DNA from: Blastocatellia bacterium
GTDB lineage: Bacteria > Acidobacteriota > Blastocatellia > UBA7656
Length of the DNA: 64,000 nucleotides
Direction: 5' to 3'
Assembly (NCBI GenBank): GCA_035455165.1
Contig: DATIFP010000007.1
Span: forward strand, 9,631 to 73,630
The position numbers were made by a program, and so were the translations under genes. How positions within the stretch are numbered: position 1 is the stretch's first letter; every line of letters begins with the position of its first letter. The notes beneath the pieces were generated by a model that saw only the letters and a program-made list of their open reading frames with translations, was not told where the DNA came from and made no database searches. This document shows, piece by piece, positions 7,378 to 58,920 of the stretch.

Positions 7378-8052
7378 CTATCGCGAGAAGGTGCCAACAA
7401 AGGCGCTGCGCTTGCCGTGAACCGTCCAGGACACATCAAGGCCGGCGCCTTCGAATCGGTCGAGCTCGGCTACCGCGGGCATCGAGTGAACGGTCGCCGC
7501 CAGGGGCGGATAGAAGACATCCTCGTTGCCGCACAGGTGGTCCTTGCCGTTGATCGCGCGAGTCTCGATGCCGGCGATGTTTCCGGCTCGCACGAGCGTC
7601 TTCCCGTAGTGACCGTCGTGTCCGCTCACTTCGACTTTGATCGGAGCGACCTCGACTCGCACTACGTTCTTGAGCAGCTCCCCGGCCATCGCTTGAGCAA
7701 ACTCGACCAGGGCCTTTTGCTGATCGCCGCAAGCCTTCTCGTCAACGATCATCACCGCTTTTGCCGGATAGGGACTATTGAACTGATCGCCAAGTGTCGC
7801 GCTCGCCTTGACGACCCCCACCACGCTGAGCCCGTCAAGCGAAACGCCTTTCCACTCACCCTTGTTCACTCGCCACGCGAGAATCGCCTGATCGCCCGCC
7901 AGGTTCATTTCTCCGTTAGCGACGCACGCGCCGGTCCAGACGTCCGCACTGCGCGTTTCAATGTAGTCGCCCGAGATGCTCTGGGCCCTGGTCGTCGAAC
8001 CAAGGGTCAAAACAACCAACGCCAGCGCCGCGATAAACATCATCTTTCGCAT
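7378..8052 (-). CDS. Hypothetical secreted protein
   Basis: ATG at 8052 ('MRKMMFIAALALVVLTLGSTTRAQS', signal peptide) preceded by a GGAAGGAGA RBS. The +strand ORF 7339..8124 is a shadow. Confidence 0.55.
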   Translation of the reverse strand: MRKMMFIAALALVVLTLGSTTRAQSISGDYIETRSADVWTGACVANGEMNLAGDQAILAWRVNKGEWKGVSLDGLSVVGVVKASATLGDQFNSPYPAKAVMIVDEKACGDQQKALVEFAQAMAGELLKNVVRVEVAPIKVEVSGHDGHYGKTLVRAGNIAGIETRAINGKDHLCGNEDVFYPPLAATVHSMPAVAELDRFEGAGLDVSWTVHGKRSAFVGTFSR

Positions 8053-8071
8053 CGTTTGGTTTCTCCTTCCA

Positions 8072-8169
8072 ACCTTTGCGTCTTTGCGGGACTTTGCGTC
8101 CTTTGCGCGAAACCAGACTCTTAAATCCCAGGCCTCTCGCAACGAACGACAAGACCCGCAAAGAGCGCC
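8072..8169. repeat. Degenerate copy of the heptamer palindrome (4x CTTTGCG ... CGCAAAGAGCGCC)
   Basis: CTTTGCG at 8074, 8082, 8092, 8101. Complementary 'cgcaaagagcgcc' at 8157-8169. Confidence 0.5.
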
Positions 8170-8185
8170 AAGTGTTTCGATCTTA

Positions 8186-8419
8186 TCACACGTAACCTTT
8201 TCCGTAACAGCCACGTTCCGCCGACGAACAGTTTCCAGGCTCTGCAAGCTGTCCGTCCGGCCCCATGCAGGTTTGCGTGTACACACACCAGAAGTGACCG
8301 TCGTTTGAGGGCGGAACCGATGGGTCGTGGGCGACGCCGATGAACATTCCCTTCCATCGAAGACATTCGCAAAGTTGGGGATGTTCGATGTTGAAACGTT
8401 CAGCCTCGTTGACAATCAT
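8186..8419 (-). CDS. Small Cys-rich protein (77 aa), translationally coupled to the Mo-hydroxylase FAD subunit
   Basis: ATG at 8419..8417 overlaps the TGA of the upstream gene (ATGA). Six Cys ('...CEC...', 'HFWCVYTQTCMGPDG', '...NC...', '...GC...'). Confidence 0.4.
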   Translation of the reverse strand: MIVNEAERFNIEHPQLCECLRWKGMFIGVAHDPSVPPSNDGHFWCVYTQTCMGPDGQLAEPGNCSSAERGCYGKGYV

Positions 8420-9417
8420 CGTGCACCTCCTCGGGCCGCTTCAAGTATGGCCCGTTTAACCGCCACTCGCGCGAGCTGAATCTTGTACGCGTTGCGGCCA
8501 AGACTCTTCGCGCCCGATACCGCAGCTTCGCCTGCGGCCTGCGCCACCTGTTCGTTGATGGTCTTGCCCGCAAGCGCTTGTTCGGCAGCCGCAGCTCGCC
8601 AGGGGGTCGGCGCCACATGGCCCATCACAATGCGAGCCGAAGTGACTTTGCCACCGGACACCTTCAAGGCTACCGACGCGGCCGCGAGCGGCCAATCCAG
8701 CGCTTCCTTCTGTCGAACCTCGTAGGTTGCGCTCTTCACTCCTGCTTGGGCAGGCACGATGATCTCGGTGACGATCTCACCGGGCTTCAGGTCGTACTCG
8801 CGGTCGTTGTCGCTTTGGGGCAAGACGAAAAACTTCTCCGCCGCGACGTCTCGCGAGCCTTTCGAGCCGTAGACTCGAACACTCGCCCCATAAGCAATCA
8901 GCGCGGGAGCGAGGCTCGATGGGTTGACGAAGTAGGCGGGCCCGCTATTTCCAAGTATGGCGTGATAGCGGTTGTCTCCGTGAAGTACCAGTGACTCGCC
9001 GCCCTCCTCGCTGGGATTTGCTCGGGCGAGCAAACCGAAACCCGCGCGGTAGTACCAGCATCGCGGGCGCTGAGTGAGATCGCCCCCGACTGTCCCCCGG
9101 CTTCGGAGCTGCGGGCTGGTTATTCCCCTGGCGGCGCCCACAAGCGCAGGATACTCCCTCGCGACTTGCGCGTTGTCGATCAGCTCCTGAATCGTCACAG
9201 TAGCGCCGATTCGAAGCCCGCTCTTCGAGGACCTGATGCCGCCGAACTCGGCTATGTCCTTGATGTTCACCAGCCGCTTGGGGTGTACGACGTCGTCCTT
9301 CATCAGCGAGAGCAAATCAGTGCCTCCGGCCAGCACTTCGGCGTCGCCCCAACTGCTTCCGAGAAGCGCTACAGCTTGTTCTTTGGTTGTAGGGTTGGCG
9401 TATTCAAATCCGCGCAT
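8416..9417 (-). CDS. Xanthine dehydrogenase family FAD-binding subunit (PaoB/CoxM-like)
   Basis: 'VLAGGTDLLSLMK' FAD-binding motif of molybdopterin dehydrogenase medium subunits. 333 aa. Confidence 0.85.
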   Translation of the reverse strand: MRGFEYANPTTKEQAVALLGSSWGDAEVLAGGTDLLSLMKDDVVHPKRLVNIKDIAEFGGIRSSKSGLRIGATVTIQELIDNAQVAREYPALVGAARGITSPQLRSRGTVGGDLTQRPRCWYYRAGFGLLARANPSEEGGESLVLHGDNRYHAILGNSGPAYFVNPSSLAPALIAYGASVRVYGSKGSRDVAAEKFFVLPQSDNDREYDLKPGEIVTEIIVPAQAGVKSATYEVRQKEALDWPLAAASVALKVSGGKVTSARIVMGHVAPTPWRAAAAEQALAGKTINEQVAQAAGEAAVSGAKSLGRNAYKIQLARVAVKRAILEAARGGAR

Positions 9418-9418
9418 C

Positions 9419-11563
9419 TTATTTGCCTCCCTTCTGCTCGAGAGCCGCGAGCACTCGGTCAGGCGTTAACGGCAGGGTGGGGACTCGCACTCCGATGGCG
9501 TTCGCCACCGCGTTCGAGATCACCGCGCCGGGCGAAACTACCGGGGGTTCGCCCAGGCCAATCACCCCGCGTTCGTCGTAGCCCTTGCCGGTCATCATGT
9601 GAACCACCAGATCGCCGATGTCTCCGATCCCCGCCAGCTTGTAGAACTCCATGTTCGGGTTCAGCATCCGGCCGGTCTTCGCGTCCATGATCTTTTCTTC
9701 ATAGAGCGCGTAGCAGACGCCCATAATCAAGGCGCCGTAGACCTGGCTTTCGGCGGTCTTGAGATCGATGATCAATCCGCAATCCTGCACGGCAACGATC
9801 TTATTGATTCGAACGATACCGGTTTCGATATCGACCGAAACATCCGCCATCTGGACGCCGCCTACGCCCTGGTCGGTCAGCTTGCCCGGTCCCGGATTCT
9901 TGCCGCGAACGGTGATTGGAGTCACGCCGAGCTTCGAGCAGGCCTGAGCCCACGTCAACGACTTTGCCGGATTGCTCTTCACTCGGATCACTCCCCCGGC
10001 AGCTTCCAAATCCTCCGGCTTCGCGTCGAGAGCGGGAGCAGCTTTGGCGAAGATCTGATCGAGCGCATCGAGCGACGCGCGTCGCGAAGAAGCGCTGACC
10101 CCGCCGATGGTCGTGCTTCCACCGGAACCCTGGGACGGCGGGAAGCGGCTGTCGCCGATCGATATCTTCACCTTGTCCATTGGCAGGCCGAGCGTGTCGG
10201 CGACTACGATATTCAGCGCAGTCCGAGTTCCGGTTCCGAGATCCTGAGTGCCCATCTTCAACTCGACCGAACCGTCCGGTTGAATGATCAGGTCGCAATC
10301 GCTCGGATGACCCTGTCCGCCCCACGTGTGAATCGACAGGCCGAGTCCCCGTTTGACCGGGCCGGCGCCTTCGTCGCCGCGCGGGTGCCAGTTACTCTTC
10401 CAGCCGATCAGATCGGCCGCGATCTTCATCTCGTCTTCGTAGATTCGAGCGCGTTGGCCGGTCATCTCGATGTTCTTCAGGAAGAAGTCATGCGGATCCA
10501 TGCCGATCGCGGCTGCCGCGTCCTCGAGGGCCGCCATGGTGATGGCGCAGCCTTGCGGATGGGACGGTGCGCGCCACGCTCTTGCGCTGCCTATGTGATT
10601 GACGATCGCGGTGTGCTGCCTGCGCTGGTTGGGGATGTTGAAGATGTACGGTAAAGGCGGCGATCCTCCGCTTCCCAGTCCGCCGCTCGCCCACGATTGA
10701 GACTCCCACGCGGTAATCGTTCCGTCCTTCTTAAGCCCAACCTTGACTCTGGCGTAGGCCGAGGGCCGCGCGCCGGCGACCATCAACTCGGCTTCGCGGT
10801 CGTTGAACATCTTTACGGGCTTGCCGCCGGCCTTCTTGGAAAGTCGCGCGGCGGTGATATCCCACTCATCCGGACCGAACTTGCTGCCGAACCCGCCGCC
10901 GACGTGATCTTGCTGGACCCGAACGTTGGTTGCGGGAATCTCGAGCGGTCGGGCGATAGCCGCCACCGACGGGGTGACGGCCTGAGTCGACAGATGCGCA
11001 AGCACATTCTGGTCGCCCTCCCACTCCATCACCGAACCGTGCGGCTCCAGGCAACAGTGAGTGATCACCGGCAGTCCGTACATTCCCTCGACGGTAACTT
11101 CAGCCTCGCTGAAGCCTTTGTCGGGATCGCCGAGCTTGTTTTCGTTTGCGGGCCGCGCGTATTCACCGGCCATCTTTGGATCCGTGTCGACGACCAGATG
11201 CGGCAGCACCTCGTATTCGACCTTGATCGCGCGCATCGCGTCTTCAGCGGTGGGCTCGTCCACCGCGGCAAGAGCCACGACCGAAGCTCCCACCCAGTTA
11301 AGCTCGGCCGTCGGCTTGCCCGGCTCAGCCATAACGTGGATGGCTTTGACGCCCGGCATCGACTCAGCCGCGCTGGTATCGATGCTCTTGACTCGCGCGT
11401 GAGCATGCGGGCTGCGGACGATCCTGCCGAAGAGCATTCCGGGCCGATTGATGTCGAAAGAGTACTTCGCGCGGCCGGAGACCTTTTGGGGTCCGTCGAT
11501 TCTGGAAATGCGCTTGCCGATGAAGGTGCGCTTATCCGCATCCGGCCATTTATATTCAGCCAT
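9419..11563 (-). CDS. Xanthine dehydrogenase family molybdopterin-binding large subunit (PaoC-like aldehyde oxidoreductase)
   Basis: ORF 9419..11710. ATG at 11563 ('MAEYKWPD...') preceded by an AGGAGG RBS. 'FGRIVRSPHAHARV' and 'GGGFG' Mo-hydroxylase motifs. Confidence 0.9.
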   Translation of the reverse strand: MAEYKWPDADKRTFIGKRISRIDGPQKVSGRAKYSFDINRPGMLFGRIVRSPHAHARVKSIDTSAAESMPGVKAIHVMAEPGKPTAELNWVGASVVALAAVDEPTAEDAMRAIKVEYEVLPHLVVDTDPKMAGEYARPANENKLGDPDKGFSEAEVTVEGMYGLPVITHCCLEPHGSVMEWEGDQNVLAHLSTQAVTPSVAAIARPLEIPATNVRVQQDHVGGGFGSKFGPDEWDITAARLSKKAGGKPVKMFNDREAELMVAGARPSAYARVKVGLKKDGTITAWESQSWASGGLGSGGSPPLPYIFNIPNQRRQHTAIVNHIGSARAWRAPSHPQGCAITMAALEDAAAAIGMDPHDFFLKNIEMTGQRARIYEDEMKIAADLIGWKSNWHPRGDEGAGPVKRGLGLSIHTWGGQGHPSDCDLIIQPDGSVELKMGTQDLGTGTRTALNIVVADTLGLPMDKVKISIGDSRFPPSQGSGGSTTIGGVSASSRRASLDALDQIFAKAAPALDAKPEDLEAAGGVIRVKSNPAKSLTWAQACSKLGVTPITVRGKNPGPGKLTDQGVGGVQMADVSVDIETGIVRINKIVAVQDCGLIIDLKTAESQVYGALIMGVCYALYEEKIMDAKTGRMLNPNMEFYKLAGIGDIGDLVVHMMTGKGYDERGVIGLGEPPVVSPGAVISNAVANAIGVRVPTLPLTPDRVLAALEQKGGK

Positions 11564-12185
11564 TGCGCGGCCCTCCTTTCTGCGCGGTTTGCGCAACCGC
11601 GGCGCGCACGCCCATGTACGTGCCGCACCTGCAGAGATTTCCTCCGAGTCCCTCCTTGATCTGATCCGCAGTAGGGCTCGGGTTCTTGTCGAGGAACGCC
11701 TTGCTTGCAACTACGAACCCCGGAGTGCAGAAGCCGCATTGCTGGGCGTCGTTGTCAATGAACGCCTGCTGGATCGGATGCAGCTTGTCGCCCTGTAGCA
11801 ACCCTTCGACGGTCGTGATCTGTTTGCCCTGCGCTTCAATTGCGAGGACCGAGCACGAATACACCGGCTTGCCGTCGACAATCATCGTGCAAGCTCCGCA
11901 GGTAGCGCGATCGCATACGCGCTTGGCTCCGGTGATGTCCAGATCGTTGCGCAGTGCGTCGAGCAGCGTCACTCGCGGCTCCACATTCACCGTGGACGTT
12001 TTGCCGTTGATCGTCAGCTGAATTGGGACCTTGGCCGGGCCGTACACCTTGACGTCGGCTCCGGCCACTTTGATGACTCGATGACCAATCACGAGCGGGA
12101 CCGACAGCGAGATGCCGGACACCTTCAAGAAGCTGCGTCGCGATAGCCCCGAGCCTTTCTCTTTCAGATCGTCATCATCTTGCAT
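11556..12185 (-). CDS. (2Fe-2S)-binding small subunit with Tat signal (PaoA-like)
   Basis: ATG at 12185 after an AGGAGG RBS. 'SRRSFLK' twin-arginine motif. Cys clusters 'CDRATCGACT' and 'CGFCTPG...CRCGTY'. 8-nt overlap with the large subunit. Confidence 0.85.
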   Translation of the reverse strand: MQDDDDLKEKGSGLSRRSFLKVSGISLSVPLVIGHRVIKVAGADVKVYGPAKVPIQLTINGKTSTVNVEPRVTLLDALRNDLDITGAKRVCDRATCGACTMIVDGKPVYSCSVLAIEAQGKQITTVEGLLQGDKLHPIQQAFIDNDAQQCGFCTPGFVVASKAFLDKNPSPTADQIKEGLGGNLCRCGTYMGVRAAVAQTAQKGGPRNG

Positions 12186-12203
12186 CCTCGCCTCCTTTGA
12201 ATT

Positions 12204-12282
12204 GTCCGACAAACTTCAGTTTGTCGTTTCTTCCTGAGTGCGGTCGCTTCTAGATCCTTCGCCAAACTGAAGTTTGTCGGAC
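12204..12282. promoter_or_regulatory. Perfect 20-bp inverted repeat (39-nt spacer) embedding an 8-4-8 palindrome; candidate operator or RNA stem ahead of the Mo-hydroxylase operon
   Basis: 12204-12223 'gtccgacaaacttcagtttg' vs 12263-12282 'caaactgaagtttgtcggac'. Local palindrome cgacaaac-ttca-gtttgtcg at 12207-12226. Confidence 0.5.
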
Positions 12283-12292
12283 TTCGCCGAAT

Positions 12293-12748
12293 CTACGGCG
12301 GTGTTTCTCTAAACTCGAGTTCGTTACGACAACAAGGGCAAAGCCCTGGCGTGTAGGCCTTGATGTTGCAGAGCTCGCAGAAGTAATAAATATCGTAGAG
12401 CTTGCCTTCGATTATCGACTGCACCTTGATTAGTTCCAGTTGGTCCGCGCCATGAAGCCGGCCGGTGATTTGAAGCTCGCGCTCGCGTACTCGAGAATCT
12501 GTGAAGACCGGAGTCATCGTATCGGTCGGCAGGAACTTGTAGAGCTTTCCCTCACGACTCGCCAAACCAAAGCGCGGATTCGGCTGGTTGCAAGCAAAGG
12601 GCGAATCAACCGGTCGCCCCTGGGCGTCAAGGCAGACGACGCGCCCTTTCGTAACTACGAATCGCTCGTCCTGGAAACTCGCCGCCGGCGATGAGAGTAG
12701 AGCCAAGCTGGCGAAAACCACCACAAGCGAGCTTAGGAATCGACTCAT
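12293..12748 (-). CDS. Hypothetical secreted Cys-rich protein
   Basis: Signal peptide 'MSRFLSSLVVVFASLALLSSPAASF'. C-terminal 'CELCN...CPCC' cluster. Same strand as, and immediately upstream of, the Mo-hydroxylase genes. Confidence 0.5.
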   Translation of the reverse strand: MSRFLSSLVVVFASLALLSSPAASFQDERFVVTKGRVVCLDAQGRPVDSPFACNQPNPRFGLASREGKLYKFLPTDTMTPVFTDSRVRERELQITGRLHGADQLELIKVQSIIEGKLYDIYYFCELCNIKAYTPGLCPCCRNELEFRETPP

Positions 12749-13028
12749 TTGCGGCTCTTAAAACCTGAAACGAACAGCTCGCTATCCTGTGAGCGGGTGT
12801 GTTGAGGCACAGGAAAGTCCACTGAAAGCCGACCCACTATAATACGATTATCCTCGTCACCGCCTCGACTTGCTTCGGCCGCTACCTTACCATAGTCGAG
12901 GTTGGTCGAGCAACGAAGCAGAGCCCTCACGGAAGCCGTAACGATTTGGAAGCGGCCCACGTAACTGTGTTGGTGTGCTTGCGTCGCGATCGGACGTAAC
13001 GGAGCCTGGCGAGTTGCCCACGGAAGCC

Positions 13029-14267
13029 ATGACGAGCGTCGATCCAACAGAAGACCTGGCCGCTTTGAACCCTATCGATTCCACCGAAGCCGCAAAGGAA
13101 TCGTGGGAAGTGGTTGTCGTGGGAGCCGGCCCTGCGGGCTCCATGGCCGCTCTTCACCTCGCGAAACGCGGACACCGGACTCTCCTGCTCGACAAGGACA
13201 GCTTCCCCCGAGACAAGGTCTGTGGTGACGGGTTGATCGCCGACTCGGTTCGATGTCTTGCGAGGGCCGGGCTGTACGACGAGATCCGCGCGCGCAGCCG
13301 CAAGTCGGACATCGGAACTGTCTACAGCCCGTCGAGAGTCTCCTTCGACGTGCCTGGCGAGTTCCTTACGCTCAAGCGCGTTCACCTCGACGCTCTGATC
13401 GTCAAGAAGGCGGTGGAGTACGGAGCGGTCTTTTGCCAATCGCGGGCTACAGGAGTCGAGGTCCAACCGAATTCGGAGCTTCTTGTCTCGCTCGAAGGGG
13501 CCCCCACCGCCGTCGCTGCGCGAATTGTCTTCCTGGCGACGGGAGCAAACGTCGATGTGCCGTCGAAGCTCGGGCTCGTGACTGAACGACACCCAAGCGC
13601 AATAGCGCTGCGGTGCTATGTTCGATCGCCGATCGTCCTTGATCGGCTCGTTGTGTCGTACGATCGGTCTATCACTCCGGGCTACGCGTGGATCTTTCCG
13701 CTTGCGGATGGCGAGTTCAATATCGGGTGCGGTGTAAACTACCGGCGGCGTTCGAACTCGACTGTGAACCTGCGCGAGGCGTTCAAGTCATTTGTAGAGA
13801 ATTTTCCACTGGCGGCTGAGATTGTTCGTCACGCGGAAACGATCTCTCCGCTGCGGGGAGCAATGCTTCGCTGCGGCTTGAGTGGCACTAAGCCACTGGG
13901 TCCCGGCAACACTCTCGTATTGGGTGAGAGCATCGGCGCTACATTTCCCTTCACCGGCGAAGGAATCGGCAAGGCGATGGAGACGGGAGAAATCGCAGCA
14001 GAAGTCGCCGATGAAGCGCTGACGACCGGGGACTTTGAACGACTTCGCGACTTCCCTCGTCGAATAGAGCAGGAACTCAAGCCGAAGTTCCTGGGTTATA
14101 GGATTGCCGAGAACTGGTTCTCGCGCCCGTGGCTGAATGATTTCGTCGCGAGGCGTATTCGCCGAAGCCGCTTCCTCCAGGAGTTGGTGGCGGGAATTGT
14201 TAATGAGACGGTCGATCCGCGCGAAGTCTTCTCGCTGCGCGGTATGATTCGCTCATTCGTGAGTTGA
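13029..14267 (+). CDS. FAD-dependent oxidoreductase, geranylgeranyl reductase family
   Basis: 'VVVVGAGPAGSMAALHLAKRG' dinucleotide-binding motif. 'KVCGDGL' typical of the geranylgeranyl reductase family. Confidence 0.7.
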   Translation: MTSVDPTEDLAALNPIDSTEAAKESWEVVVVGAGPAGSMAALHLAKRGHRTLLLDKDSFPRDKVCGDGLIADSVRCLARAGLYDEIRARSRKSDIGTVYSPSRVSFDVPGEFLTLKRVHLDALIVKKAVEYGAVFCQSRATGVEVQPNSELLVSLEGAPTAVAARIVFLATGANVDVPSKLGLVTERHPSAIALRCYVRSPIVLDRLVVSYDRSITPGYAWIFPLADGEFNIGCGVNYRRRSNSTVNLREAFKSFVENFPLAAEIVRHAETISPLRGAMLRCGLSGTKPLGPGNTLVLGESIGATFPFTGEGIGKAMETGEIAAEVADEALTTGDFERLRDFPRRIEQELKPKFLGYRIAENWFSRPWLNDFVARRIRRSRFLQELVAGIVNETVDPREVFSLRGMIRSFVS

Positions 14268-14330
14268 ACCAACCCACCGCTGTTCGGAAGCCCTCCCGCT
14301 TCCGGCAAACTGCCGGATCGTTCACACTCC

Positions 14331-14549
14331 TCACGTTCCACCGAAGCCGATCGTCACTTGTCCGTCCTCCACGATAGTCGGCACCTTGCGCTGACCTCTC
14401 GAATAGCCGAGCATCTCCCTCAGCCGGTCTGCGTTTTTCTTTACGTCGAAGTACTGAACCGAATAACCACGCTGGCCATAGTCCTCACGGGCGGCCGCGG
14501 TGTACGGTCAGCCATCCTTGCCGAAGATCGATACTCTTCTTTTGCTCAT
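14331..14549 (-). CDS. Glutaredoxin-like protein (YruB-type) with in-frame TGA at the catalytic Cys position; candidate selenoprotein (U-P-Y-T)
   Basis: Manual reverse-complement translation: MSKRRVSIFGKDG-[TGA]-PYTAAAREDYGQRGYSVQYFDVKKNADRLREMLGYSRGQRKVPTIVEDGQVTIGFGGT*. GGAAGGAGAGAGG RBS upstream. TGA at 14510..14508. Not in the ORF track because it is split by TGA. Confidence 0.55.
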
Positions 14550-14863
14550 ATCCTCTCTCCTTCCTCGGACATTCATTCTGCCACGCCAACCGTCGCTTCG
14601 CACACGGCGTTCAGCGGCGGCGGCACAAAATTGTTGCATATTTGTTAACACAGTAGACCCGGCTTTCGAGCTGTGTTATTGTTAGGCCGATGCGAGATGC
14701 GCGAACGTCGCAGCCCCCGTTCTTCAATGTTCACGAATCGAAATGAGTGACCCTCGCAGGTTCAGACTCACCAGCGGTTCAAAGATAACGTCGCAGTAGC
14801 TGCAACGTCGAAGGCAGGACGCGCATCGGAAGCACAGATCAAAGTAGGACGGTAGCTCGGAAC

Positions 14864-29827: not shown

Positions 29828-31579
29828 TCAGGACGTCACTCCTTCGAGCTTGTCTTCGAGGCTGGCGGCGATCTCCTTCAACCGCTCGAGCACCGTGTGC
29901 TCCGCTGACCAGAACCCCCGTCCGGAAGCTTCGAGCAATCGCTCAACAAGCGTTCGGGCGGAGTGCGGATTGAGTGAGCGCAAGCGGTCCAGCATCTGCC
30001 CGTCAAGCACATAAGTCGCCGCCACTTCGTCGTACACCCAATCGTCAACCGCGTCAGCAGTCGCCGACCAGCCAAACGTGTTGGTGATATGATGCTCGAT
30101 CTCGGCCACTCCGCTGAAGCCGTGCCGCAGCATCCCTTCAAACCACTTTGGATTGAGCGTCTTGGTTCGAGTCTCGAGCCGAACAGTTTCTTCAAGTGTC
30201 CTGATCTTTGAGCCCGGCGAGGTCGAGTCCGACAGATAGATGCTGGGACGTCCGCCTCCCAGTTTTTCAACTGCCTTCGAAACCCCGCCCAGATACTCGA
30301 AATAATGATCGACGTCGGTTATCCCAACCTCGGTAGTGTCGATGTTCTGGTAAGTCACATCGACTCGCGAAAGCGCTCGCTCTAACAGCTTACGCGCCTC
30401 GCGGCCGTCGAAGCTGTTGCCGTGAGAGTCGCGGCCGTAGGCGAAACACTTTCGCGTTACGAACAACTCCCCCAGCTCGCCGCTGTTCTCCCACTGGCTA
30501 TCCAGCACCATGAAATTGACATTCGTTCCATAGTTGCCGGCAGCATTCGAGAACAAGCGGACTACCGCTTCGTCGAATTCACAATTTGTATCGTTGATTT
30601 GCTCCTCGACGTGACGCTTGAGGAAATTCATGTCGGCCGGCTCGTCGAGCGCAGCAACCCTTCTAACGGCTTTGTCGAGCAATGTCATCGTGGCCCCGAA
30701 CAGATCGCGGAAGATACCAGACACGGTCATCACCACGTCGATGCGCGGCCGTCCGAGCTCTTCGAGCGGGATCACCTCAATATCCGTCGCCCGATTCATT
30801 GAATCGCGACGCGGCCTTACGCCAAGAAGCCACAATACCTGGGCAACTGCCGCCCCTTCGGTTTTGATGTTGTCGATTCCCCACAGCACCATAGCGATAG
30901 TCTCGGGGTACCGTCCGGCTTCGCGGAGATGTCGCTCGACGAGAGCACCAGCGATTGGTTCGGCGCGCTGGACCGCGGTAATCGAAGGGATGGAGTACGG
31001 ATTAACCGCGTGTGTGTTGCGCCCGGTCGGAAGGATATCGGGATTTTGAACGACGTCCGCGCCGGGACCTGGTTCGACGTATTCGCCTCGAAGCGCGCTC
31101 ATCAACCCGTCCATCTCAGTGTCGGTTTCAAGCTGTCGGCAGATTTTCTCGAGAAGTCCAAACACCCTGAGCGATTCATCCCGAGAAACTGCGGCCCGCT
31201 CAGCCAGAAAGTCTGCCGCGCGTTCCCTTCCAGACTGGCCCTTATCCCCCACAAACAGCTCGACCCCCGCCCGAACAATTGCTTCAACGCGTTCTCGTTC
31301 GCGCAAACTCTGCTCAGATTGTGCGCTTGCTTTGAGCAAAGCGGCGTAATCGGAAAGACCGAGCCCGTCGGTGACCAGATTCGGGAGCGACCGAATGCCA
31401 AGCTCCGGTCTGTCAAACGAAGCGACCATCACCAACAAGTCGGCGAGCTCAGCATCTTTCGGCGCGCGTCCAAATATGTGCAGACCCGTGGGTATAAGTC
31501 GCTGCTCAATCTCCAGCACCTTTTCATAGAGGTCGAGCACGCGCCGCTCGCGTTCCAGGTTGTTCAGGTCATCGCTCAT
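29828..31579 (-). CDS. CobN/ChlH-type chelatase large-subunit homolog, C-terminal half only (583 aa)
   Basis: 'DILPTGRNTHAVNP' and the following region match the C-terminal half of CobN/Mg-chelatase H. No N-terminal half exists between this gene and the ChlD gene stop, which lies 12 nt upstream. Confidence 0.7.
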   Translation of the reverse strand: MSDDLNNLERERRVLDLYEKVLEIEQRLIPTGLHIFGRAPKDAELADLLVMVASFDRPELGIRSLPNLVTDGLGLSDYAALLKASAQSEQSLRERERVEAIVRAGVELFVGDKGQSGRERAADFLAERAAVSRDESLRVFGLLEKICRQLETDTEMDGLMSALRGEYVEPGPGADVVQNPDILPTGRNTHAVNPYSIPSITAVQRAEPIAGALVERHLREAGRYPETIAMVLWGIDNIKTEGAAVAQVLWLLGVRPRRDSMNRATDIEVIPLEELGRPRIDVVMTVSGIFRDLFGATMTLLDKAVRRVAALDEPADMNFLKRHVEEQINDTNCEFDEAVVRLFSNAAGNYGTNVNFMVLDSQWENSGELGELFVTRKCFAYGRDSHGNSFDGREARKLLERALSRVDVTYQNIDTTEVGITDVDHYFEYLGGVSKAVEKLGGGRPSIYLSDSTSPGSKIRTLEETVRLETRTKTLNPKWFEGMLRHGFSGVAEIEHHITNTFGWSATADAVDDWVYDEVAATYVLDGQMLDRLRSLNPHSARTLVERLLEASGRGFWSAEHTVLERLKEIAASLEDKLEGVTS

Positions 31580-31591
31580 TTCAAAAACCGC

Positions 31592-33550
31592 TTAACGGCG
31601 GCGCTCCTCCGCAACCGCAAAGATTGTTCTTTGGACCGCAGCCGGGTCGAACCGCGGCAAGTACAGATAGCGCGACCCCAGCATTTGCGCCAGCGCGCGT
31701 CCTTCTCCAGAGGAGACGAACCGCGATTTCGTATCAACCACAACAGACGCGATCTCTTCGGAGTGAAGCAAGCGGCCCAGTTGCCTTAGCTCGTCCTCTA
31801 TTACTGCCGCGCTTCGGTTCGTCGGTCCTTCGGTTAGACCGATGTTGGCCCTGCCATCGGTAAACAGCACAAGCATAGCCTGCGACAACCCTCTGAGCCT
31901 CGCCATTCGAGCCAGCTCGGTGGCTTTCAGGACCCCGGCAGAGATTGGAGTTCCTCCGCCCGCCGGCAGCGCATCCACAATACGCTTGGCCAGCTCGACG
32001 CTTCGAGTCGGGGCCAGCAACACCTCCGCCTGTTCGCCGCGAAAGCTTATCAACGCAACCTTGTCGCGATAGAGATAGGCTCGGCCGAGCAGTCGCGTGA
32101 GGGCGCCTTTTGCCTGTGCCATCCTGTTTACAGCCATACTGCCACTTGCATCCACTGCGAGGATGAACAGCATTCCGGATCGATGGTTCAGTTGTTTAAA
32201 CCTGAGATCGCCTGGTTCCACTCTCACTCGGCGATCAGAAGTCGTCTTCTGAAAACTCTCGGCAACCTGAGCTCGCGAGCGCCGCAGCGATTGACTAGGC
32301 GCTGCCGCTCGGAGCGTGGCGTCGACCGCGATCCTGGCACTGCGATTCCGGTGCATCACGCTGCGTACATACCGACCACGGTTATGCGAAGTCGCCCCGA
32401 GATGCTTACCCGTCCTTGCGCGCCGAAGTGACGCCTTCCACTTCAGCAAATCGTTTGGGATCGGAGCATCGATCGCTTGAATGTTCATGTCTTCGATTGA
32501 ACCGGGCGCGAAATCCCGTTCGTCGATTCGTTGCTCAATGTAGTCGTTCTCTTCCGAGTCCCCTGCTTGCGAAGGCTGCTGACGAGGTTGTTCGTGCTCC
32601 TCGGCGGGAAGCGTAGATGCTCGTGGCGCCAGCACGAACTGTATTGCGACAACTATGTCGTCTTGGTTGATGGCGGTTCGCCCCGACAGCGCCGCGTTTG
32701 CGCGAGCGGTCTTTAGCACAGCCAGGTCCGCGCTGTTTCCCTGCACGCCAAGTTTCATGGCGATCTGCGAAATCGCTCGAACCTGTTCTCTCGAGAAGTC
32801 GATCTGTGGCAGTCTCGCTCGCGCGTCCTGGATCAGACTCCTCAATTCGGCCGTTTCGAGCATAAAACCTTCAGTAAAGCCTGCCGGATCCTTTTCAAAG
32901 CGCAGTCGGCGCGACACGGCCTCTGCTCTTTCATCAGCCGTATATTGCTCAGTCTCATTTACGATTAAGTCAACGCGCTCGATCAGCAAAGAACGCGGCT
33001 CGCCCCCTGCCGGATCGAAGCATGCGAGCAAGGTGAAATTGGCTGAATGGATCGCGCTGACTCCCTCGCGTTCAAGAACCACGTGTCGACGGTCAACCGC
33101 GTGAGCTATGTGATTAGCAGTGCCTGAGTCCAGCAGGTTGATATCACCAACCAACAGCACGCCGCCATCGGCCTCAGCAAGCAAACCGCCGAGAACTTCG
33201 CGCCTTCCGGTAGAAACCGTCCGCTCGAGGTCAATCGCGCCCAGCAGACGATCGTCACTGACATTCAAGGGAACCTCAACCACTGGCATGTCGCGACCGA
33301 GATCCGATTCATTTGACTGCGGTCCATCGATGTGGCGATTTGGAAGGATTGCCGTGAAGGAGCGAAAAAGAGTTTGCGCATCGGAGCTTCGCTCCGATGC
33401 GATCAGCGCACCTTTGAGACCCGGCTCGACCGCAAGCAGCAACAGCGCGCGCTTGGCCGCGTGACGCCCCACGATTGCGGCGAACGGGTACGTGAATCGG
33501 CGGAGCTTGTGCCGAGCTGCGCTCTTCGTTTCGGTCCGTGCGTTCATCAA
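31592..33550 (-). CDS. Chelatase subunit D (ChlD/BchD family: degenerate AAA+ plus C-terminal VWA)
   Basis: N-terminal 'YPFAAIVG' AAA+-like region. C-terminal VWA ('LFILAVDASGSM' MIDAS-type). Confidence 0.85.
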   Translation of the reverse strand: MMNARTETKSAARHKLRRFTYPFAAIVGRHAAKRALLLLAVEPGLKGALIASERSSDAQTLFRSFTAILPNRHIDGPQSNESDLGRDMPVVEVPLNVSDDRLLGAIDLERTVSTGRREVLGGLLAEADGGVLLVGDINLLDSGTANHIAHAVDRRHVVLEREGVSAIHSANFTLLACFDPAGGEPRSLLIERVDLIVNETEQYTADERAEAVSRRLRFEKDPAGFTEGFMLETAELRSLIQDARARLPQIDFSREQVRAISQIAMKLGVQGNSADLAVLKTARANAALSGRTAINQDDIVVAIQFVLAPRASTLPAEEHEQPRQQPSQAGDSEENDYIEQRIDERDFAPGSIEDMNIQAIDAPIPNDLLKWKASLRRARTGKHLGATSHNRGRYVRSVMHRNRSARIAVDATLRAAAPSQSLRRSRAQVAESFQKTTSDRRVRVEPGDLRFKQLNHRSGMLFILAVDASGSMAVNRMAQAKGALTRLLGRAYLYRDKVALISFRGEQAEVLLAPTRSVELAKRIVDALPAGGGTPISAGVLKATELARMARLRGLSQAMLVLFTDGRANIGLTEGPTNRSAAVIEDELRQLGRLLHSEEIASVVVDTKSRFVSSGEGRALAQMLGSRYLYLPRFDPAAVQRTIFAVAEERRR

Positions 33551-33574
33551 CGGAAGGAACTCGACATCAGACGG

Positions 33575-34699
33575 TCATCTGACCGCCGACAGTCGCCTCC
33601 GGGCAATACGATTAGAGATCACCTCAGCGAGCGCAAGCTCGATGCGCTCACCGCAGTCGACCGCTTCAAACGGGTCTCTGCGCAGCCGATGTCGAAGCGA
33701 CATCACCGCCACTCTTGCGGCGTCGTCGAAGTTCGTCTTCGTCCGGCCTTCAAACGCGGCAAGCGCGCGAGCCGCTCGCGCAATAGTGAGCTCTCCGCGA
33801 TGCCCGTCCACCTTCAAGGAAACACAGAGTTCAGCAATTGCGACCAGCAGGCCGCGGTCTATGGAGCCTCGCGCTAGTAGCTTCCTAGCTCGCGAGACTC
33901 GTCTTCGGAGCTGCGTCTGCTCGCCTTCCCAGCGAGCCCGAAAACCATCGGGGTCATCATCGAAGCACTCGCACCGCTCGACGATCTCGACGCGTTGATC
34001 GAGATCAACGATTGTTTCGACCTGAGCGTAGATTCCGAAGCGGTCGAGCAGTTGAGGCCTCAACTCGCCCTCCTCGGGATTGCCGGAGCCGACCAGAACG
34101 AACCGGGCCGGATGGCTGACGGAGATCCCCTCGCGCTCGACGACGTTGCGCCCCGATGCCGCCGCGTCTAGCAACACGTCAACCAGGTGATCTTCGAGGA
34201 GATTAACCTCGTCGATATAGAGGAAGCCGCGGTTCGCGCGCGCGAGCAAGCCCGGCTCGAAGGCCTTCACCCCATCGACGAGCGCGCGCTCGATGTCCAG
34301 TGTGCCGCAGATTCGATCCTCGGTCGCTCCGAGCGGTAGATCCACGACCGGCACGGTGCCCCGATCAGTCGGGAGATCGGCGATGTGCCTCGAACAGTCC
34401 TCGCAAAAGTCTTCCGGCTTATCGGGATCACACCCATAGATGCAACCCCTGACTTTCCGTATTCCAGGCAACAGATCAGCCAACGCGCGGACGGCAGTAG
34501 ACTTGCCGGTGCCGCGATGGCCCATGATGATCACTCCACCGATGTTGGGATCGATAACCGACAGCAACAGGGCGAGCTTCATCTCCTGCTGGCCGACAAT
34601 TGCGGTGAACGGATAAGAGCTTCGAAGATGCCGGGTGCCCGCTGCTTTCTTTCGCTCAAAGGAATCGCGGCTTGTCCGTCTTGTTTTTTTACTGGGCAT
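33575..34699 (-). CDS. Chelatase ATPase subunit I (ChlI/BchI family)
   Basis: 'YPFTAIVGQQEMKLALLLSVIDPNIGGVIIMGHRGTGKST' is a near-canonical ChlI N-terminus. Cys-rich insert 'CIYGCDPDKPEDFCEDC'. ATG at 34699. Confidence 0.85.
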   Translation of the reverse strand: MPSKKTRRTSRDSFERKKAAGTRHLRSSYPFTAIVGQQEMKLALLLSVIDPNIGGVIIMGHRGTGKSTAVRALADLLPGIRKVRGCIYGCDPDKPEDFCEDCSRHIADLPTDRGTVPVVDLPLGATEDRICGTLDIERALVDGVKAFEPGLLARANRGFLYIDEVNLLEDHLVDVLLDAAASGRNVVEREGISVSHPARFVLVGSGNPEEGELRPQLLDRFGIYAQVETIVDLDQRVEIVERCECFDDDPDGFRARWEGEQTQLRRRVSRARKLLARGSIDRGLLVAIAELCVSLKVDGHRGELTIARAARALAAFEGRTKTNFDDAARVAVMSLRHRLRRDPFEAVDCGERIELALAEVISNRIARRRLSAVR

Positions 34700-34939
34700 G
34701 TCGAGGTTATGGATCGCGGCGGCCGGAACGAGTCTCGACCCTGTGCACCAATATAGAAGGTGAGTCTTACATCGGTCAACCAAGCACTCAATTCGCGCAT
34801 CGAAGGGCCTGGTCACACCTCTCGCAACGGCGCTCTGGCATCAACAGGAAGTGCGTGGACCTCATGATAGTGGTCCGGATGTGTTAGACTTTCTTGGCTG
34901 GGTTGAGAGAACCTGATCAAAGGAGCGGTTGGAGGCACT

Positions 34940-54040: not shown

Positions 54041-55966
54041 ATGGGAGAGAATAAGATTAACCTGAGCGACCTCCTTGAAACTCATCGCCGCGACCGCGAG
54101 CGGCTTGCCTGGGAAGGAACATTCAGAGATTACTTCGAACTGGTTACCCAAAACCCAAGCAGTTCGAAGCTCTCGCACGCGCGGATCTGCGACATGATCC
54201 TTGCGGCCGGCGTGGAGAAGATCAACGAGGGATCCAGGGACGAAATAGTAAAATACGAATTTTTCAGCGATGAGCTTTTCGGGATAGAGCGTCCGATCTC
54301 AAGAATAGTCGAGTATTTCAAATCGGCCGGCCAACGGCTCGAAGTCCGAAAGCGAATTCTGTTGCTGATGGGTCCGGTGGGCGGCGGCAAATCGACCATC
54401 GTCACGATGCTCAAGCGTGGTCTTGAGAAGTGGTCGCGCACCGGTAACGGCGCGGTGTACGCGATTAAAGACTGCCCGATGCACGAAGAGCCTCTTCATT
54501 TGATCCCTCCGGAGCTCAGGCCGGAAATAGAGAAACACTACGGGATATATATCGAAGGCGAGCTGTGCCCGCAGTGCCGCTACAACCTCGAGCACGTGTA
54601 TCGAGGACGTCACGAGGACGTGCTCGTTCATCGCATCGTGTTCTCCGAGAAGGACCGCATCGGGATCGGCACCTTCGCTCCGTCTGACCCGAAATCTCAG
54701 GACATCACCGAGCTGACCGGCTCCATAGACTTGTCGACCATCGGCGAGGTCGGCGTCGAATCCGACCCGCGCGCGTACCGCTTCGACGGCGAGTTGAACA
54801 TCGCCAATCGCGGCCTGATGGAGTTCGTCGAGATGTTGAAGGTCGATGAGAAGTTCCTCTATAGCTTGCTGACGCTAAGCCAGGAACAGAACATCAAGAC
54901 CGGCCGGTTTGCCCTGATCTATGCGGACGAGGCGATCATCTCCCACACTAACGAGAACGAATACTCAGCGTTCGTCGCGAACCGCAAGAGCGAAGCGCTG
55001 CAAGACCGGATCATAATGATCAAGGTCCCCTACAACCTGAAGGTGTCGCAAGAAGAGCGAATCTACGACAAGCTGTTGAAGCAATCGGACGCGCTTCGAA
55101 ACATTCACATCGCGCCCAGCACTCTGAAGATCGCCGCGATGTTCGCGGTAATGACCAGGCTCGAAGAACCGAAGAAGGCAAACATAGACATCGTCAAAAA
55201 GATGAAGCTATATGACGGCGAGGACGTCGAGGGCTTCAAATCCAAGGACGTGCGGGATCTCAAGGAAGACACCGTGCGCGAAGGAATGGACGGGATCAGC
55301 CCGAGGTACATCATCAATCGCCTCTCCGGCGCGCTGGTCAAAGACAATATCACCTGTATCAATCCAATCGATGCGTTGCGCGCCATCAAGGACGGGTTTG
55401 AGCAACACACCGGTATCTCCGCCGAGCAGCGGGACCGCTATTTGAACCTGGTTTCCGTCGCGCGGCGCGAATACGACGAAATCGCCAAGAATGAAGTGCA
55501 GCGGGCGTTTGTCTACTCGTTCGAGGAGATGGCCAAGACCGTATGCGACAACTACCTCGACAACGTGGAAGCGTACTGCAACAAGGAGAAGCTCAAGGAC
55601 GCCATCACCGAAGAAGAGATCGAACCGGACGAAAAGCTGATGCGCTCGATTGAGGAACAGATCGGCATCAGCGAAAACGGTAAGAATACTTTCAGGCAAG
55701 AGATTCTCATACGAATCTCCAGTCACGCGCGAAAGGGCCGGCCCTTCGAGTACAAATCGCACGAGCGGCTGAAAGAGGCGATCGAGAAGAAGATATTCTC
55801 CGACCTGAAGGACGTGGTGAAGATCACCACATCCACGAAGACGCCGGATGCGGACCAGCTTCGGCGCATCAACGAAGTGATCGATCGATTGGTATCGCAG
55901 AGCGGGTATTGCACGGTTTGCGCGAACGAGCTGCTGACTTATGTGGGGACGCTGTTGTCGCGATAG
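54041..55966 (+). CDS. prkA: PrkA family serine protein kinase (YeaG)
   Basis: 'LLMGPVGGGKST' Walker A and PrkA-family similarity throughout. 641 aa. Confidence 0.9.
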   Translation: MGENKINLSDLLETHRRDRERLAWEGTFRDYFELVTQNPSSSKLSHARICDMILAAGVEKINEGSRDEIVKYEFFSDELFGIERPISRIVEYFKSAGQRLEVRKRILLLMGPVGGGKSTIVTMLKRGLEKWSRTGNGAVYAIKDCPMHEEPLHLIPPELRPEIEKHYGIYIEGELCPQCRYNLEHVYRGRHEDVLVHRIVFSEKDRIGIGTFAPSDPKSQDITELTGSIDLSTIGEVGVESDPRAYRFDGELNIANRGLMEFVEMLKVDEKFLYSLLTLSQEQNIKTGRFALIYADEAIISHTNENEYSAFVANRKSEALQDRIIMIKVPYNLKVSQEERIYDKLLKQSDALRNIHIAPSTLKIAAMFAVMTRLEEPKKANIDIVKKMKLYDGEDVEGFKSKDVRDLKEDTVREGMDGISPRYIINRLSGALVKDNITCINPIDALRAIKDGFEQHTGISAEQRDRYLNLVSVARREYDEIAKNEVQRAFVYSFEEMAKTVCDNYLDNVEAYCNKEKLKDAITEEEIEPDEKLMRSIEEQIGISENGKNTFRQEILIRISSHARKGRPFEYKSHERLKEAIEKKIFSDLKDVVKITTSTKTPDADQLRRINEVIDRLVSQSGYCTVCANELLTYVGTLLSR

Positions 55967-56254
55967 CCCGGGCGCGAAGCTGTCGACGTTCTTGACCGGC
56001 GACCGATCGGCTGCGCTCAGCTCGTGCTAACCGTGGGCGAGGACTTGGATGGTCGTGCGGGCAAACTATTTGAAGAAGTTGCTGCTATCGGAACGGCGGT
56101 TCTTATCAACCAACTGGTTTCTCCCAAAGGTGAAACCGGGCCCTTAGGGCCGCGGCGGAAAAGCTCGATCCAGCTTTCAATCCCGGTAAGTCGTACGAGC
56201 GACCTGGCGGTGTGAATCCAGCCCACGGCTCACCGAGGGCGTTAAGTATTGCCG

Positions 56255-57712
56255 ATGACGCCAGGTACGTTTGTGAGGACGCTGATGTTTTGTCCGAAGT
56301 GCGCAACCGAAAACCCCGATGCCAACAGATACTGCCGGGCATGTCGCGAGAATCTGCAACTGGTTTCCCAAGCGATGAAGGGTCGGGCTCCGGTCGTACT
56401 TGCAGGTAAGGTTGATCAGATACTGGACAGCAGAAGCGAACGGTTTCGGCGGGACAGCCTATTGAACCTCCTGATGTTCATGGCCGTGCTGGTGGGCGGC
56501 TTGGTAAGCTGGCAGAAGGGATACTCCGGGCCTTACAGTGAGCCCCTCTTCTTCATACCTCTAGCAATTCTTTCCGCGAGGCAGGCTCTTCTAGAATATC
56601 GCGCCTACAAGCGAAGCCTGTCACCAGATTTTGATTGGAAGGGACCCGATCACGAGCACCGCGAACGCGTTGCGCACCCTGATTATCGCGTTTTTAGGGG
56701 ACGCTCTTTGGCGGATTCTGACTGGAGAGGAATCGGGCAGGAAGACTATCGAAATACTTTGGGCTATCGGCTCGGCAGGTCTGTTCGGACACTTTCTCTC
56801 AGGCTGAGGAGGCTGCTGATGTTCGGGTCGGCAGTCCCTCCCGGACTACCTCAATTTGCAGCGGGTCAAGAAGGGGCGAACGACACAGCGATGACTGCTG
56901 GATATCATGCTTCCGGTTCGCTTTCGGCGACTGCATCAACGGCTCGGCAACGCCGTGCAACGGCTGCCGCCGCTCACAGCGAATCCTTTGACCAAGCATC
57001 ACACGCCAGGTACGTTGCTGATACTTATCTGGAGAGTGCGACTGGATCGATAGGCCGACAACTCGATTCATCAAACACAGGGTTCAAAAACGAGCCGCTG
57101 ATTATCTATTGCCCGGTTTGTGGCGAGGCAAACGGCTCGCAGCCCAGCCGATGCGGTGCTTGCGGAACAAGCCTCGGTCCGATCGCCGAACGTCTGAAGC
57201 CTTCGAGCCAAAACGCTCGGACAGCTAAGCTCGATCGGTTTATCAGAGCGAAAGCCGAGGGGCTAGTTTCGGCAAGCGAGCACCTGTCGCTCTCAGTCTC
57301 GGTTGGCTTGGTGGCGCTAACCCTCCTTGTCGGCGTCTGGTCGTCGTGGTCGGCCCCCGGCTGGTGGTACAGTCTGTCTCTGTCAATCGTTGTTTGTATT
57401 GCGCATGCCTGGGACCGCATAGCCTACAGACGCATCTCTCGCGAACAGGGATCTGTTGAGATGAATGAGCACGGCATGACGCGGGGTTCCTGCGCTCGAG
57501 CAGAGATTTTCGATTCGGATGAGAGGAAGCCGCTTCACGAATGGCAACGCCTGTATCGAGGCCTGTGGCTTCTCATAGAGGTGACTTCCGAAGACGAAGC
57601 GGGAGTCTCTGACGGAAGACTGGTAGCCACAGCCGAAGACCGCTCTGCGTTCCGCGACCTCGATCAGACATATGATGAGCGCTACTTGATTGCGATCTAC
57701 GCGGGGTATTGA
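56255..57712 (+). CDS. Duplicated zinc-ribbon / transmembrane protein of unknown function
   Basis: Two modules, each a 'CPxC...CxxC' zinc ribbon ('CPKCATEN..CRAC', 'CPVCGEAN..CGAC') followed by two TM helices. Start could be 56249, 56255 or 56285. Confidence 0.55.
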   Translation: MTPGTFVRTLMFCPKCATENPDANRYCRACRENLQLVSQAMKGRAPVVLAGKVDQILDSRSERFRRDSLLNLLMFMAVLVGGLVSWQKGYSGPYSEPLFFIPLAILSARQALLEYRAYKRSLSPDFDWKGPDHEHRERVAHPDYRVFRGRSLADSDWRGIGQEDYRNTLGYRLGRSVRTLSLRLRRLLMFGSAVPPGLPQFAAGQEGANDTAMTAGYHASGSLSATASTARQRRATAAAAHSESFDQASHARYVADTYLESATGSIGRQLDSSNTGFKNEPLIIYCPVCGEANGSQPSRCGACGTSLGPIAERLKPSSQNARTAKLDRFIRAKAEGLVSASEHLSLSVSVGLVALTLLVGVWSSWSAPGWWYSLSLSIVVCIAHAWDRIAYRRISREQGSVEMNEHGMTRGSCARAEIFDSDERKPLHEWQRLYRGLWLLIEVTSEDEAGVSDGRLVATAEDRSAFRDLDQTYDERYLIAIYAGY

Positions 57713-57761
57713 TCGGGCCCATTCGATTTGTAAAAGCCATTCCCCGGTTCGGAGTGATGTT

Positions 57762-58916
57762 ATGTCAGTACAACGAAACGATTGGTCGCTTCAACGCAAG
57801 GGTCAGATAGATCAGGATCGCCACAAGGAGCGCGTGCGGGACGCGATCAAGAAGAACCTCGGCTCGATCGTATCCAACGAGTCGATCATCCTTTCGGACG
57901 GCAAACGAGTGGTAAAAGTGCCGATTCGCTCGCTCGATGAATACAAGTTCCGCTTCGACTATCGAAAGAAGAAACACGTCGGAACCGGCGACGGCAACAC
58001 GAAGGTCGGAGACGTGATCGGCCACGAGGCGCAACCCGGCCAGGGTCAGGGCCAGGGCGGCGATCAACCGGGGCAGGAATACTTTGAGGCCGAGGTAGAC
58101 ATCGATGAGATTGCCAAGCTGATCTTCGAGGACTTGCACCTGCCGTACCTCGAAGAGAAGGCAAAACATGCCGTTCCATCCAAGTCCACGAAGTTCACCG
58201 AGATTCGTCGCGCGGGCATCCTCTCGAATCTCGACAAACGCCGCAGCATTCTCGAAAACATAAAGCGCCAGGCGCGCGAAACCGGTGAGCCGCGCCTCGG
58301 CCCATTCAAGAAGGAGGATTTGCGCTACAAAACCTGGGAACAGCAGATGACCTACGAGTCGAACGCCGTCGTTATCGCGATGATGGACGTCAGCGGCTCG
58401 ATGGGCGAATTCAAAAAGTACATCGCGCGATCTTTCTACTTCTGGATGGTGCGATTTCTCAAAACCAAATACGACAACGTGAAGATAGTGTTCATCAGCC
58501 ACCACACAGAGGCGAAGGAGGTAACAGAAGAACAGTTCTTCACCCAAGGCGAGTCCGGCGGAACGGTAGTCTCGTCTGCATACCGTCTGGCGCTTGATGT
58601 GGTTGACTCGCGCTTCCCGGCCAGAGACTGGAATATCTACCCGTTTCATTTTTCCGACGGCGACAACTACTACTCGGACAACGACGAGGCGGTGAAGCTC
58701 GCAGACGAGTTGATAGCCACGTGCAATCTTTTTGGCTACGGCGAAATTGGAGAAGAAGGCGCGTCGAGCTACCGGCGCTCGTCTGGCGCATTGCTGTCAA
58801 TCTTCAAGGACAGACTCAAGAGCCAGGATCGCTTTGTCGGCGTGCGCATCGACGACAAAGAGGACGTTTATCCGGCGCTGAAGGAGTTCTTCGGCAAACG
58901 CGGCGAAGAGGCGTAG
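57762..58916 (+). CDS. YeaH/YhbH (DUF444) family protein
   Basis: GGAG RBS. Family similarity including the C-terminal VWA-like 'AMMDVSGSM' motif. Confidence 0.85.
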
Positions 58917-58920
58917 GGAT

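Follow-up and report, generated by a model that had tools for sequence, protein, structure and literature searches.

The locus lies on the minus strand of the window, by which we mean the whole 64-kb stretch of DNA analysed. On this strand 14331..14549 reads as MSKRRVSIFGKDG, an in-frame stop, PYTAAAREDYGQRGYSVQYFDVKKNADRLREMLGYSRGQRKVPTIVEDGQVTIGFGGT and a further stop, and this sequence, with its in-frame TGA at 14510..14508, is as a preliminary description had given it. That description ended the gene at 14331, which is wrong: the supposed stop is a second selenocysteine (Sec) codon, and the coding sequence (CDS) runs from 14549 to 14322. The codons at 14333..14322 on the minus strand are TGA GGA GTG TGA, giving T-U-G-V-stop, and translation with both Sec residues yields MSKRRVSIFGKDG-U-PYTAAA...GFGGT-U-GV, a product of 75 aa. 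The features of the locus are:

14552..14564, minus strand: Shine-Dalgarno-like sequence GGAAGGAGAGAGG, with 2 nt between its end and the ATG (direct sequence reading)
14549..14547, minus strand: ATG start, in agreement with homolog N-termini and with the start of the NCBIfam profile at residue 6
14322..14549, minus strand: full CDS, 75 codons plus the true TGA stop (translation; NF041114 at 117 bits, profile positions 1-70 of 70)
14508..14510, minus strand: UGA no. 1, Sec14, the catalytic position of U-P-Y-T (TGA/TGC/TGT alternation among 96 loci)
14466..14501, minus strand: possible lower stem ACCGCG (14501..14496) / CGUGGU (14471..14466) flanking candidate SECIS no. 1 in the window copy (RNAfold minimum free energy (MFE) and suboptimal structures)
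14476..14490, minus strand: upper hairpin of candidate SECIS no. 1, CCGUG[AGGAC]UAUGG, 5-bp stem (suboptimal fold, 1 kcal/mol above the MFE)
14331..14333, minus strand: UGA no. 2, Sec73 (TGA in 96 of 96 loci; the tail adds 9 bits to the NCBIfam score)
14322..14324, minus strand: true stop TGA after Gly-Val, two codons past Sec73 (translation; the stops of homologs are TGA, TAG or TAA)
14301..14317, minus strand: SECIS no. 2, UCCGGCA[GUU]UGCCGGA, 7 bp, in the 3' UTR (part of the MFE structure, -10.5 kcal/mol)

The strong ribosome binding site claimed earlier is present as the GGAAGGAGAGAGG motif at 14564..14552. The remark that no ORF exists here was roughly true, apart from a 47-aa minus-strand piece at 14508..14651 and an overlapping antisense ORF. 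The latter (14358-14648, plus strand) is 96 aa long, GC-rich, antisense to the selenoprotein gene and most likely spurious. The locus is thus very probably a real selenoprotein gene that had been rightly spotted and incompletely delimited.

The encoded peptide was compared with curated protein families. Without its tail it matched the NCBIfam model NF041114, 'UXX-star selenoprotein family 1', with 108 bits over profile positions 1-67 of 70, and once the U-G-V tail was appended the match rose to 117.1 bits over positions 1-70 of 70 (cutoff 72 in both cases). Because reading through into the tail completes this profile, and TGA-x-Val-stop is kept in homologs, the gene is assigned to 14549..14322 with two UGA codons. 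The protein passes the curated cutoff of UXX-star selenoprotein family 1 and carries both the C-terminal U-x-x-stop and the N-terminal [C/U]-x-x-T of that family. With U replaced by C, the peptide also matched the Pfam Glutaredoxin domain PF00462 (36.5 bits against a cutoff of 22.9). The YruB model TIGR02196 gave only 31.8 bits against a cutoff of 88.55, and UPYT or CPYT stands in place of a CxxC motif, so the earlier assignment to the YruB type does not hold.

The glutaredoxin-like character proposed at the same time was supported by the Pfam match and also by structure. For the homolog of the Cys form that is closest to the window copy (P0001), AF2 gave a model with a pLDDT of 93 that is without the last three residues. 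It shows a beta-alpha-beta-alpha-beta-beta topology, and the chain ends 5-7 residues past beta-4 in a Gly-rich tail of low confidence, a C-terminal helix being absent. The best PDB matches to this homolog model in Foldseek were glutaredoxins (TM 0.77-0.79), including cGrx1/cGrx2 of C. oremlandii, and the ArsD arsenic metallochaperone, which has the same fold, was returned at lower scores. Of the classical glutaredoxin traits, the protein thus has the thioredoxin-fold core, with an active site where helix 1 begins, but not the C-terminal helix. In sequence alignment to Grx3 and Grx2, G68 aligns with the first Gly of the glutaredoxin 'GG' motif, which adjoins the active site in glutaredoxin structures. 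The residue at the resolving position, Thr17, does not vary, and CP[YF]T is found in 111 of 120 database proteins. The predicted protein is a minimal glutaredoxin fold with two selenocysteines, Sec14 in place of the nucleophilic Cys and Sec73 on a flexible Gly-rich tail, G-F-G-G-T-U-G-V-COOH.

Both UGA codons were followed across 96 loci, made up of 15 from genomes, 80 from metagenomes, those of soil among them, and the window itself; the genome loci come from Blastocatellia and other Acidobacteriota, Vicinamibacterales, Anaeromyxobacter, Planctomycetales and Anaerolineae. At the active site the codon is TGA in 30 of the 96 loci and TGC or TGT in the other 66, while the resolving position is Thr throughout. 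This bears out the earlier statement that TGA occupies the place of the nucleophilic Cys and Thr that of the resolving one. Orthologs with a Cys codon and orthologs with TGA at this site, which the preliminary description had proposed looking for, were thus both found. A neighbour-joining tree gave at least seven interchanges between Sec and Cys at residue 14. The window copy is of the minority type (30/96), with Sec at the active site besides the tail Sec.

The C-terminal codon was TGA in all 96 loci, each time followed by x-Val and a real stop; x-Val is Gly-Val in 81 of the 92 loci that could be parsed, and the six loci that were inspected one by one all have Gly-Val. Neither TAA nor TAG was found at either Sec site among the 96 loci. 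In the closest relatives (L001-L004) both TGAs and both hairpins are retained. Public gene calls reflect the two UGA codons in their own way: all 120 database homologs end exactly at ...GFGG[TS], i.e. they are truncated at UGA no. 2, and seven of the 120 are 55-aa fragments that start directly past UGA no. 1. No Cys at residue 73 was found in the database homologs or in the 96 loci, so that within the family the argument from Cys/Sec pairs cannot be made for UGA no. 2.

Two more distant loci from Anaerolineae (L013 and L014) carry a full CPFC dithiol motif, yet end in G-Y-TGA-H-V-stop. From these sequences the C-terminal Sec tail appears not to be limited to CxxT forms; the two loci may represent another UXX-star family.

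Gene decay had been raised as what scattered interruptions in close relatives would indicate, and the stops in relatives were found at the same codon, not scattered. That the locus is a glutaredoxin gene killed by a nonsense mutation at its active-site codon is hardly conceivable, for all that an in-frame stop in a short ORF skipped by gene callers looks like one: the same TGA recurs in 30 loci of at least seven independent lineages, never as TAA or TAG and with no frameshifts, the reading frame past UGA no. 1 is fully conserved in homologs, the strong ribosome binding site is kept, and codons specific to the Sec forms lie 18-27 nt past UGA no. 1.

The RNA downstream of UGA no. 2 was then compared with the published bacterial SECIS (bSECIS) model. 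The bSECISearch criteria, as quoted in a 2026 review (PMC13188914), are a loop of 3-9 nt, an upper stem of 4-16 bp, a G in loop positions 1-2, a distance of 16-37 nt from the UGA and an MFE of -7.5 or below. SECIS no. 2 agrees with every one of them; its stem begins 4 nt past the stop and its loop 20 nt past UGA no. 2. The coding sequence continues for just two codons between UGA no. 2 and the real stop, so this element lies wholly in the 3' UTR. Hairpins of homologs are likewise GC-rich and begin about 12-17 nt past the U of UGA no. 2, just beyond the true stop. Their loops are GGC, GGUC, GUU, AGUU, GGU, GUG or AGGAC, with the first loop G mostly at +20 to +23, and their stems vary in sequence between loci while complementarity is kept.

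For a comparison with background we used a rule that asks for a stem which is perfectly paired over 5 bp or more, contains three or more G-C pairs and starts at +11 to +18, together with a 3-6-nt loop that has a G at position 1 or 2. After UGA no. 2 this rule was passed by 81 of 86 distinct homolog sequences (94%), against 585 of 6551 other TGA triplets in the same loci (8.9%) and 19 of 251 real stops of long ORFs (7.6%), an enrichment with a Fisher p of about 1e-52. MAFFT with RNAalifold returned no consensus pairs after UGA no. 2; because the stems start at variable offsets that MAFFT cannot register, this is no evidence against the hairpin. No U-tract follows SECIS no. 2, and no terminator was called on the minus strand.

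A second hairpin in the window, GGAAGC[GGGAGG]GCUUCC (14286-14303, minus strand), shares 3 nt with the 3' arm of SECIS no. 2 and also has no U-tract. The two folds are in part mutually exclusive.

These data bear on whether the TGA at 14333..14331 is a genuine stop, in which case the product would have 72 aa with Sec14 only and the hairpin would either terminate transcription or stabilise the mRNA. In favour of a genuine stop, TGA ends 24 of the 40 long ORFs in the window and is thereby its most frequent ordinary stop, public gene calls of homologs all end at UGA no. 2, and a hairpin past a stop resembles a terminator. Against this, x-Val-stop follows the TGA in 96 of 96 loci across phyla, the curated profile spans the three tail residues and gains 9 bits from them, the hairpin is without a U-tract and was not called as a terminator, and its distance and G-rich loop are constrained in a way that just 7.6% of the real stops of other genes match. 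A single-Sec product is therefore very unlikely. On the comparative data from the 96 loci, the pseudogene and terminator readings were both rejected.

The region after UGA no. 1 gave a different picture. A GC-rich self-complementary segment is present there, as had been noted, and a SECIS hairpin had been proposed within it. The region was right and the geometry was not: the supported structure, a 5-bp CCGUG/UAUGG stem with an AGGAC loop, sits inside what had been taken for a 15-nt apical loop. Its loop starts 22 nt past UGA no. 1, and the suboptimal fold satisfies the published bSECIS criteria. Folding of this segment, which had been suggested as a check, hence gave a model-compliant hairpin at the right distance, but one that is suboptimal by 1 kcal/mol and shows no excess of stability.

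Codon choice sets the Sec forms apart. Codon +6 is GCC in 27 of 28 distinct Sec forms, codon +7 is CGU in 24 of 28 (CGG in the remainder), and Glu at +8 is always GAG. Cys forms with the same residues use GCC in 10 of 51 and CGU in 4 of 41 cases (Fisher 8e-12 and 1e-10, respectively, against the Sec forms, phylogeny ignored), and CGU/CGT makes up 9% of the Arg codons in the window. This GCC-CGU-GAG choice recurs in each separate Sec lineage. The candidate register joins U23 of CGU to A31 of the Tyr codon, and its loop G comes from GAG. When at least four of five pairs and the loop G were required, 22 of 28 Sec forms passed against 6 of 51 Cys forms (p = 4e-9), and 83.6% of cells were paired in this register against 19-51% in slid controls. 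Six Sec forms fail the CCGUG/UAUGG register, and alternative stems are found in those six. The AGGAC loop also recurs among the loops of SECIS no. 2.

Three further analyses of this segment were negative. Covariation in the candidate register was not significant (89 of 500 shuffles reached the observed score), RNAalifold on a codon-register alignment of the Sec forms after UGA no. 1 returned no consensus pairs, and folding energy compared with synonymous recodings showed no excess stability (mean z = 0.0 for the Sec forms and +0.78 for the window). As judged from sequence comparison, support for candidate SECIS no. 1 thus comes from conservation, namely the Sec-form-specific codons, and not from stability, and the evidence is weaker than for SECIS no. 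2.

Taken together, the locus is with high probability a member of UXX-star selenoprotein family 1 (synonym 'Distant Grx-like protein 1') in which each UGA is decoded through its own hairpin. Judging by sequence comparison, each UGA would be recoded by SelB and Sec-tRNA(Sec), guided by a hairpin about 20 nt downstream. The putative guide for UGA no. 1 would be the weak hairpin within the CDS and that for UGA no. 2 the strong hairpin in the 3' UTR.

The host is assumed to be competent for Sec insertion. A Pfam scan of 40 ORFs found no selA, selB or selD in the 64-kb window, and a tRNA scan of the window found no tRNA, tRNA-Sec included. Rfam gave no gathering-threshold match across the window and, at E <= 10 near the gene, only a chance snoRNA match. 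When the window was searched for additional ORFs that are split by a TGA and followed up by a SECIS-like hairpin, only off-frame noise came up and no further selenoprotein candidate. One could therefore suppose a host unable to insert Sec, in which the UGAs are read otherwise (with Cys or Trp mis-inserted, or under a reassigned code) or in which the gene stays silent, since neither Sec machinery, nor tRNA-Sec, nor another selenoprotein gene occurs in these 64 kb. The window is about 1% of a genome, however, and such an absence says little. TGA as the ordinary stop of 24 of 40 long ORFs indicates the standard genetic code, the closest relatives retain both TGAs together with both hairpins, and purifying selection on the SECIS-like features implies active Sec decoding. 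We consider an incompetent host quite improbable.

The gene stands alone. A PBP4-type peptidase gene lies 314 nt upstream in divergent orientation and an FAD oxidoreductase gene (12975-14267) 54 nt downstream in convergent orientation; farther on the same strand are genes for a 151-aa Cys-rich secreted protein and for subunits of the xanthine-dehydrogenase family. Analysis of conserved neighbours in the 96 loci found no family-wide partner gene, and synteny is common only to the closest clade (Blastocatellia-type loci).

Some of the surrounding genes deserve a brief description. The 151-aa protein (12293-12748, minus strand) has a signal peptide and a C-terminal CxxC...CPCC motif and matches no Pfam family. 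In L001-L004 and L021, all among the closest loci, genes for its homologs follow the UXX-star gene on the same strand at a distance of about 180 nt, and in the window the convergent FAD oxidoreductase gene sits between the two. The xanthine-dehydrogenase-family operon (8416-12212, minus strand) comprises 2Fe-2S, molybdopterin-binding and FAD subunits and is followed by a DUF1326 protein gene (7378-8415); L001, L003 and L004 likewise encode the Moco subunit in the vicinity of the UXX-star gene. Elsewhere in the window, a 583-aa ORF (29828-31579, minus strand) matches the C-terminal half only of a CobN/Mg-chelatase profile (552-1087 of 1090). Immediately upstream of this ORF are ChlD/VWA-like and ChlI-like AAA genes (31592-34816, minus strand), with no N-terminal CobN half adjacent. 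A trio of PrkA serine kinase, DUF444 and SpoVR-like genes occupies 54041-60348 on the plus strand.

With regard to function, Thr always stands at the resolving position and the C-terminal Sec is always present, so that Sec73 would be the resolving partner of residue 14. Sec73 on its tail would form an intramolecular diselenide with Sec14, or a selenenylsulfide in the Cys14 forms, and the Sec14-Sec73 diselenide would then be reduced by a partner. We infer the contact between residues 14 and 73 from fold topology alone, the homolog model being one without the tail. This redox mechanism is the most likely reading of the protein's function, and we put it forward tentatively, at a little less than an even chance.

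Alternatively, the same gene with the same decoding could provide two selenols that bind a soft metal or metalloid (Hg, As, Cu or Se species), and the protein would then be a chaperone, scavenger or delivery protein. Metal or metalloid ligation is raised for the UXX-star family in the 2026 review (PMC13188914). The ArsD metallochaperone, with the same fold, is among the lower-scoring Foldseek matches, and both the resolving Cys and the canonical C-terminal helix of glutaredoxins are missing, as might suit a metal-binding protein. On the other hand, no metal-resistance genes were found as neighbours in the window, nor consistently in the 95 other loci, and the best structural matches are bona fide glutaredoxins. 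Gene neighbourhoods do not discriminate between a redox couple and a metal ligand. Metal binding is possible but, on balance, unlikely, and the redox couple of residue 14 with Sec73 is preferred.

The preliminary description had presented the gene as a candidate for an unannotated selenoprotein, but it is not a new one. Both the family and its double-Sec architecture are already on record in NF041114, PMC9312934 and PMC13188914: a 2022 review (PMC9312934) has it under the name 'Distant Grx-like protein 1', gives UxxT as its motif and files it under the YruB domain, and Table 1 of the 2026 review (PMC13188914) lists UXX-star selenoprotein family 1 with two Sec. The GOS paper cited for the family gives only 'Grx-like, UxxC' in its text. 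Like other members of UXX-star selenoprotein family 1, the protein matches the profile, has [C/U]-P-Y-T and a C-terminal U-x-x-stop, is about 70-75 aa long and contains two Sec; no substantive difference separates it from them. As an ordinary member of a known family, with a score above threshold, the locus leaves current understanding unchanged. Related UXX-star families (families 2 and a HUGP/GUXX-star fusion) have reportedly been described by Haft and Tolstoy in mSystems in 2025.

Several known systems resemble this protein in part. The selenoprotein glutaredoxin Grx1 of Clostridium oremlandii (Kim et al. 2011, cited in PMC13188914) shares the glutaredoxin fold and Sec at the nucleophilic position. 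It has a resolving Cys in UxxC, a C-terminal helix and no C-terminal Sec, whereas Thr and a tail Sec are found here. Proteins of the YruB type (TIGR02196) have a small glutaredoxin-like fold in common with the locus, which is without the CxxC dithiol and is not a member. Mammalian thioredoxin reductase, a large flavoenzyme that uses the eukaryotic SECIS/SBP2 system, ends in -Gly-Cys-Sec-Gly-stop. It is alike in placing a redox-active Sec on a flexible C-terminal tail, with the SECIS therefore beyond the stop, but the partner of its Sec is the adjacent Cys, while the partner proposed here is the distant active-site residue. Like E. coli fdhF-type SECIS elements and the bSECISearch consensus, SECIS no. 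2 has a small apical loop that opens with G(G/U) about 20 nt past the UGA. Candidate SECIS no. 1 is much weaker than the fdhF-type stems, and no part of SECIS no. 2 is translated, in contrast to the canonical bacterial SECIS, which belongs to the coding region.

The practical consequence is that gene callers miss or truncate genes of this kind, for which the correct model here is a protein of 75 aa with two Sec. The locus is also a clean natural case of a bacterial SECIS confined to the 3' UTR. A more speculative proposal, which we hold to be possible rather than likely, is that Sec14 and Sec73 form a natural intramolecular diselenide redox centre served by an untranslated SECIS, and that the coding sequence for A-A-R-E-D-Y is a latent SECIS. 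In that case two or three synonymous changes (GCG to GCC, CGC to CGU) together with TGC to TGA would convert Cys14 to Sec14. A latent SECIS, if real, would explain the Cys/Sec switches, at least seven in number, within the family, and lineages could then tune their redox potential. The family is an example of frequent Cys/Sec toggling at an active site.
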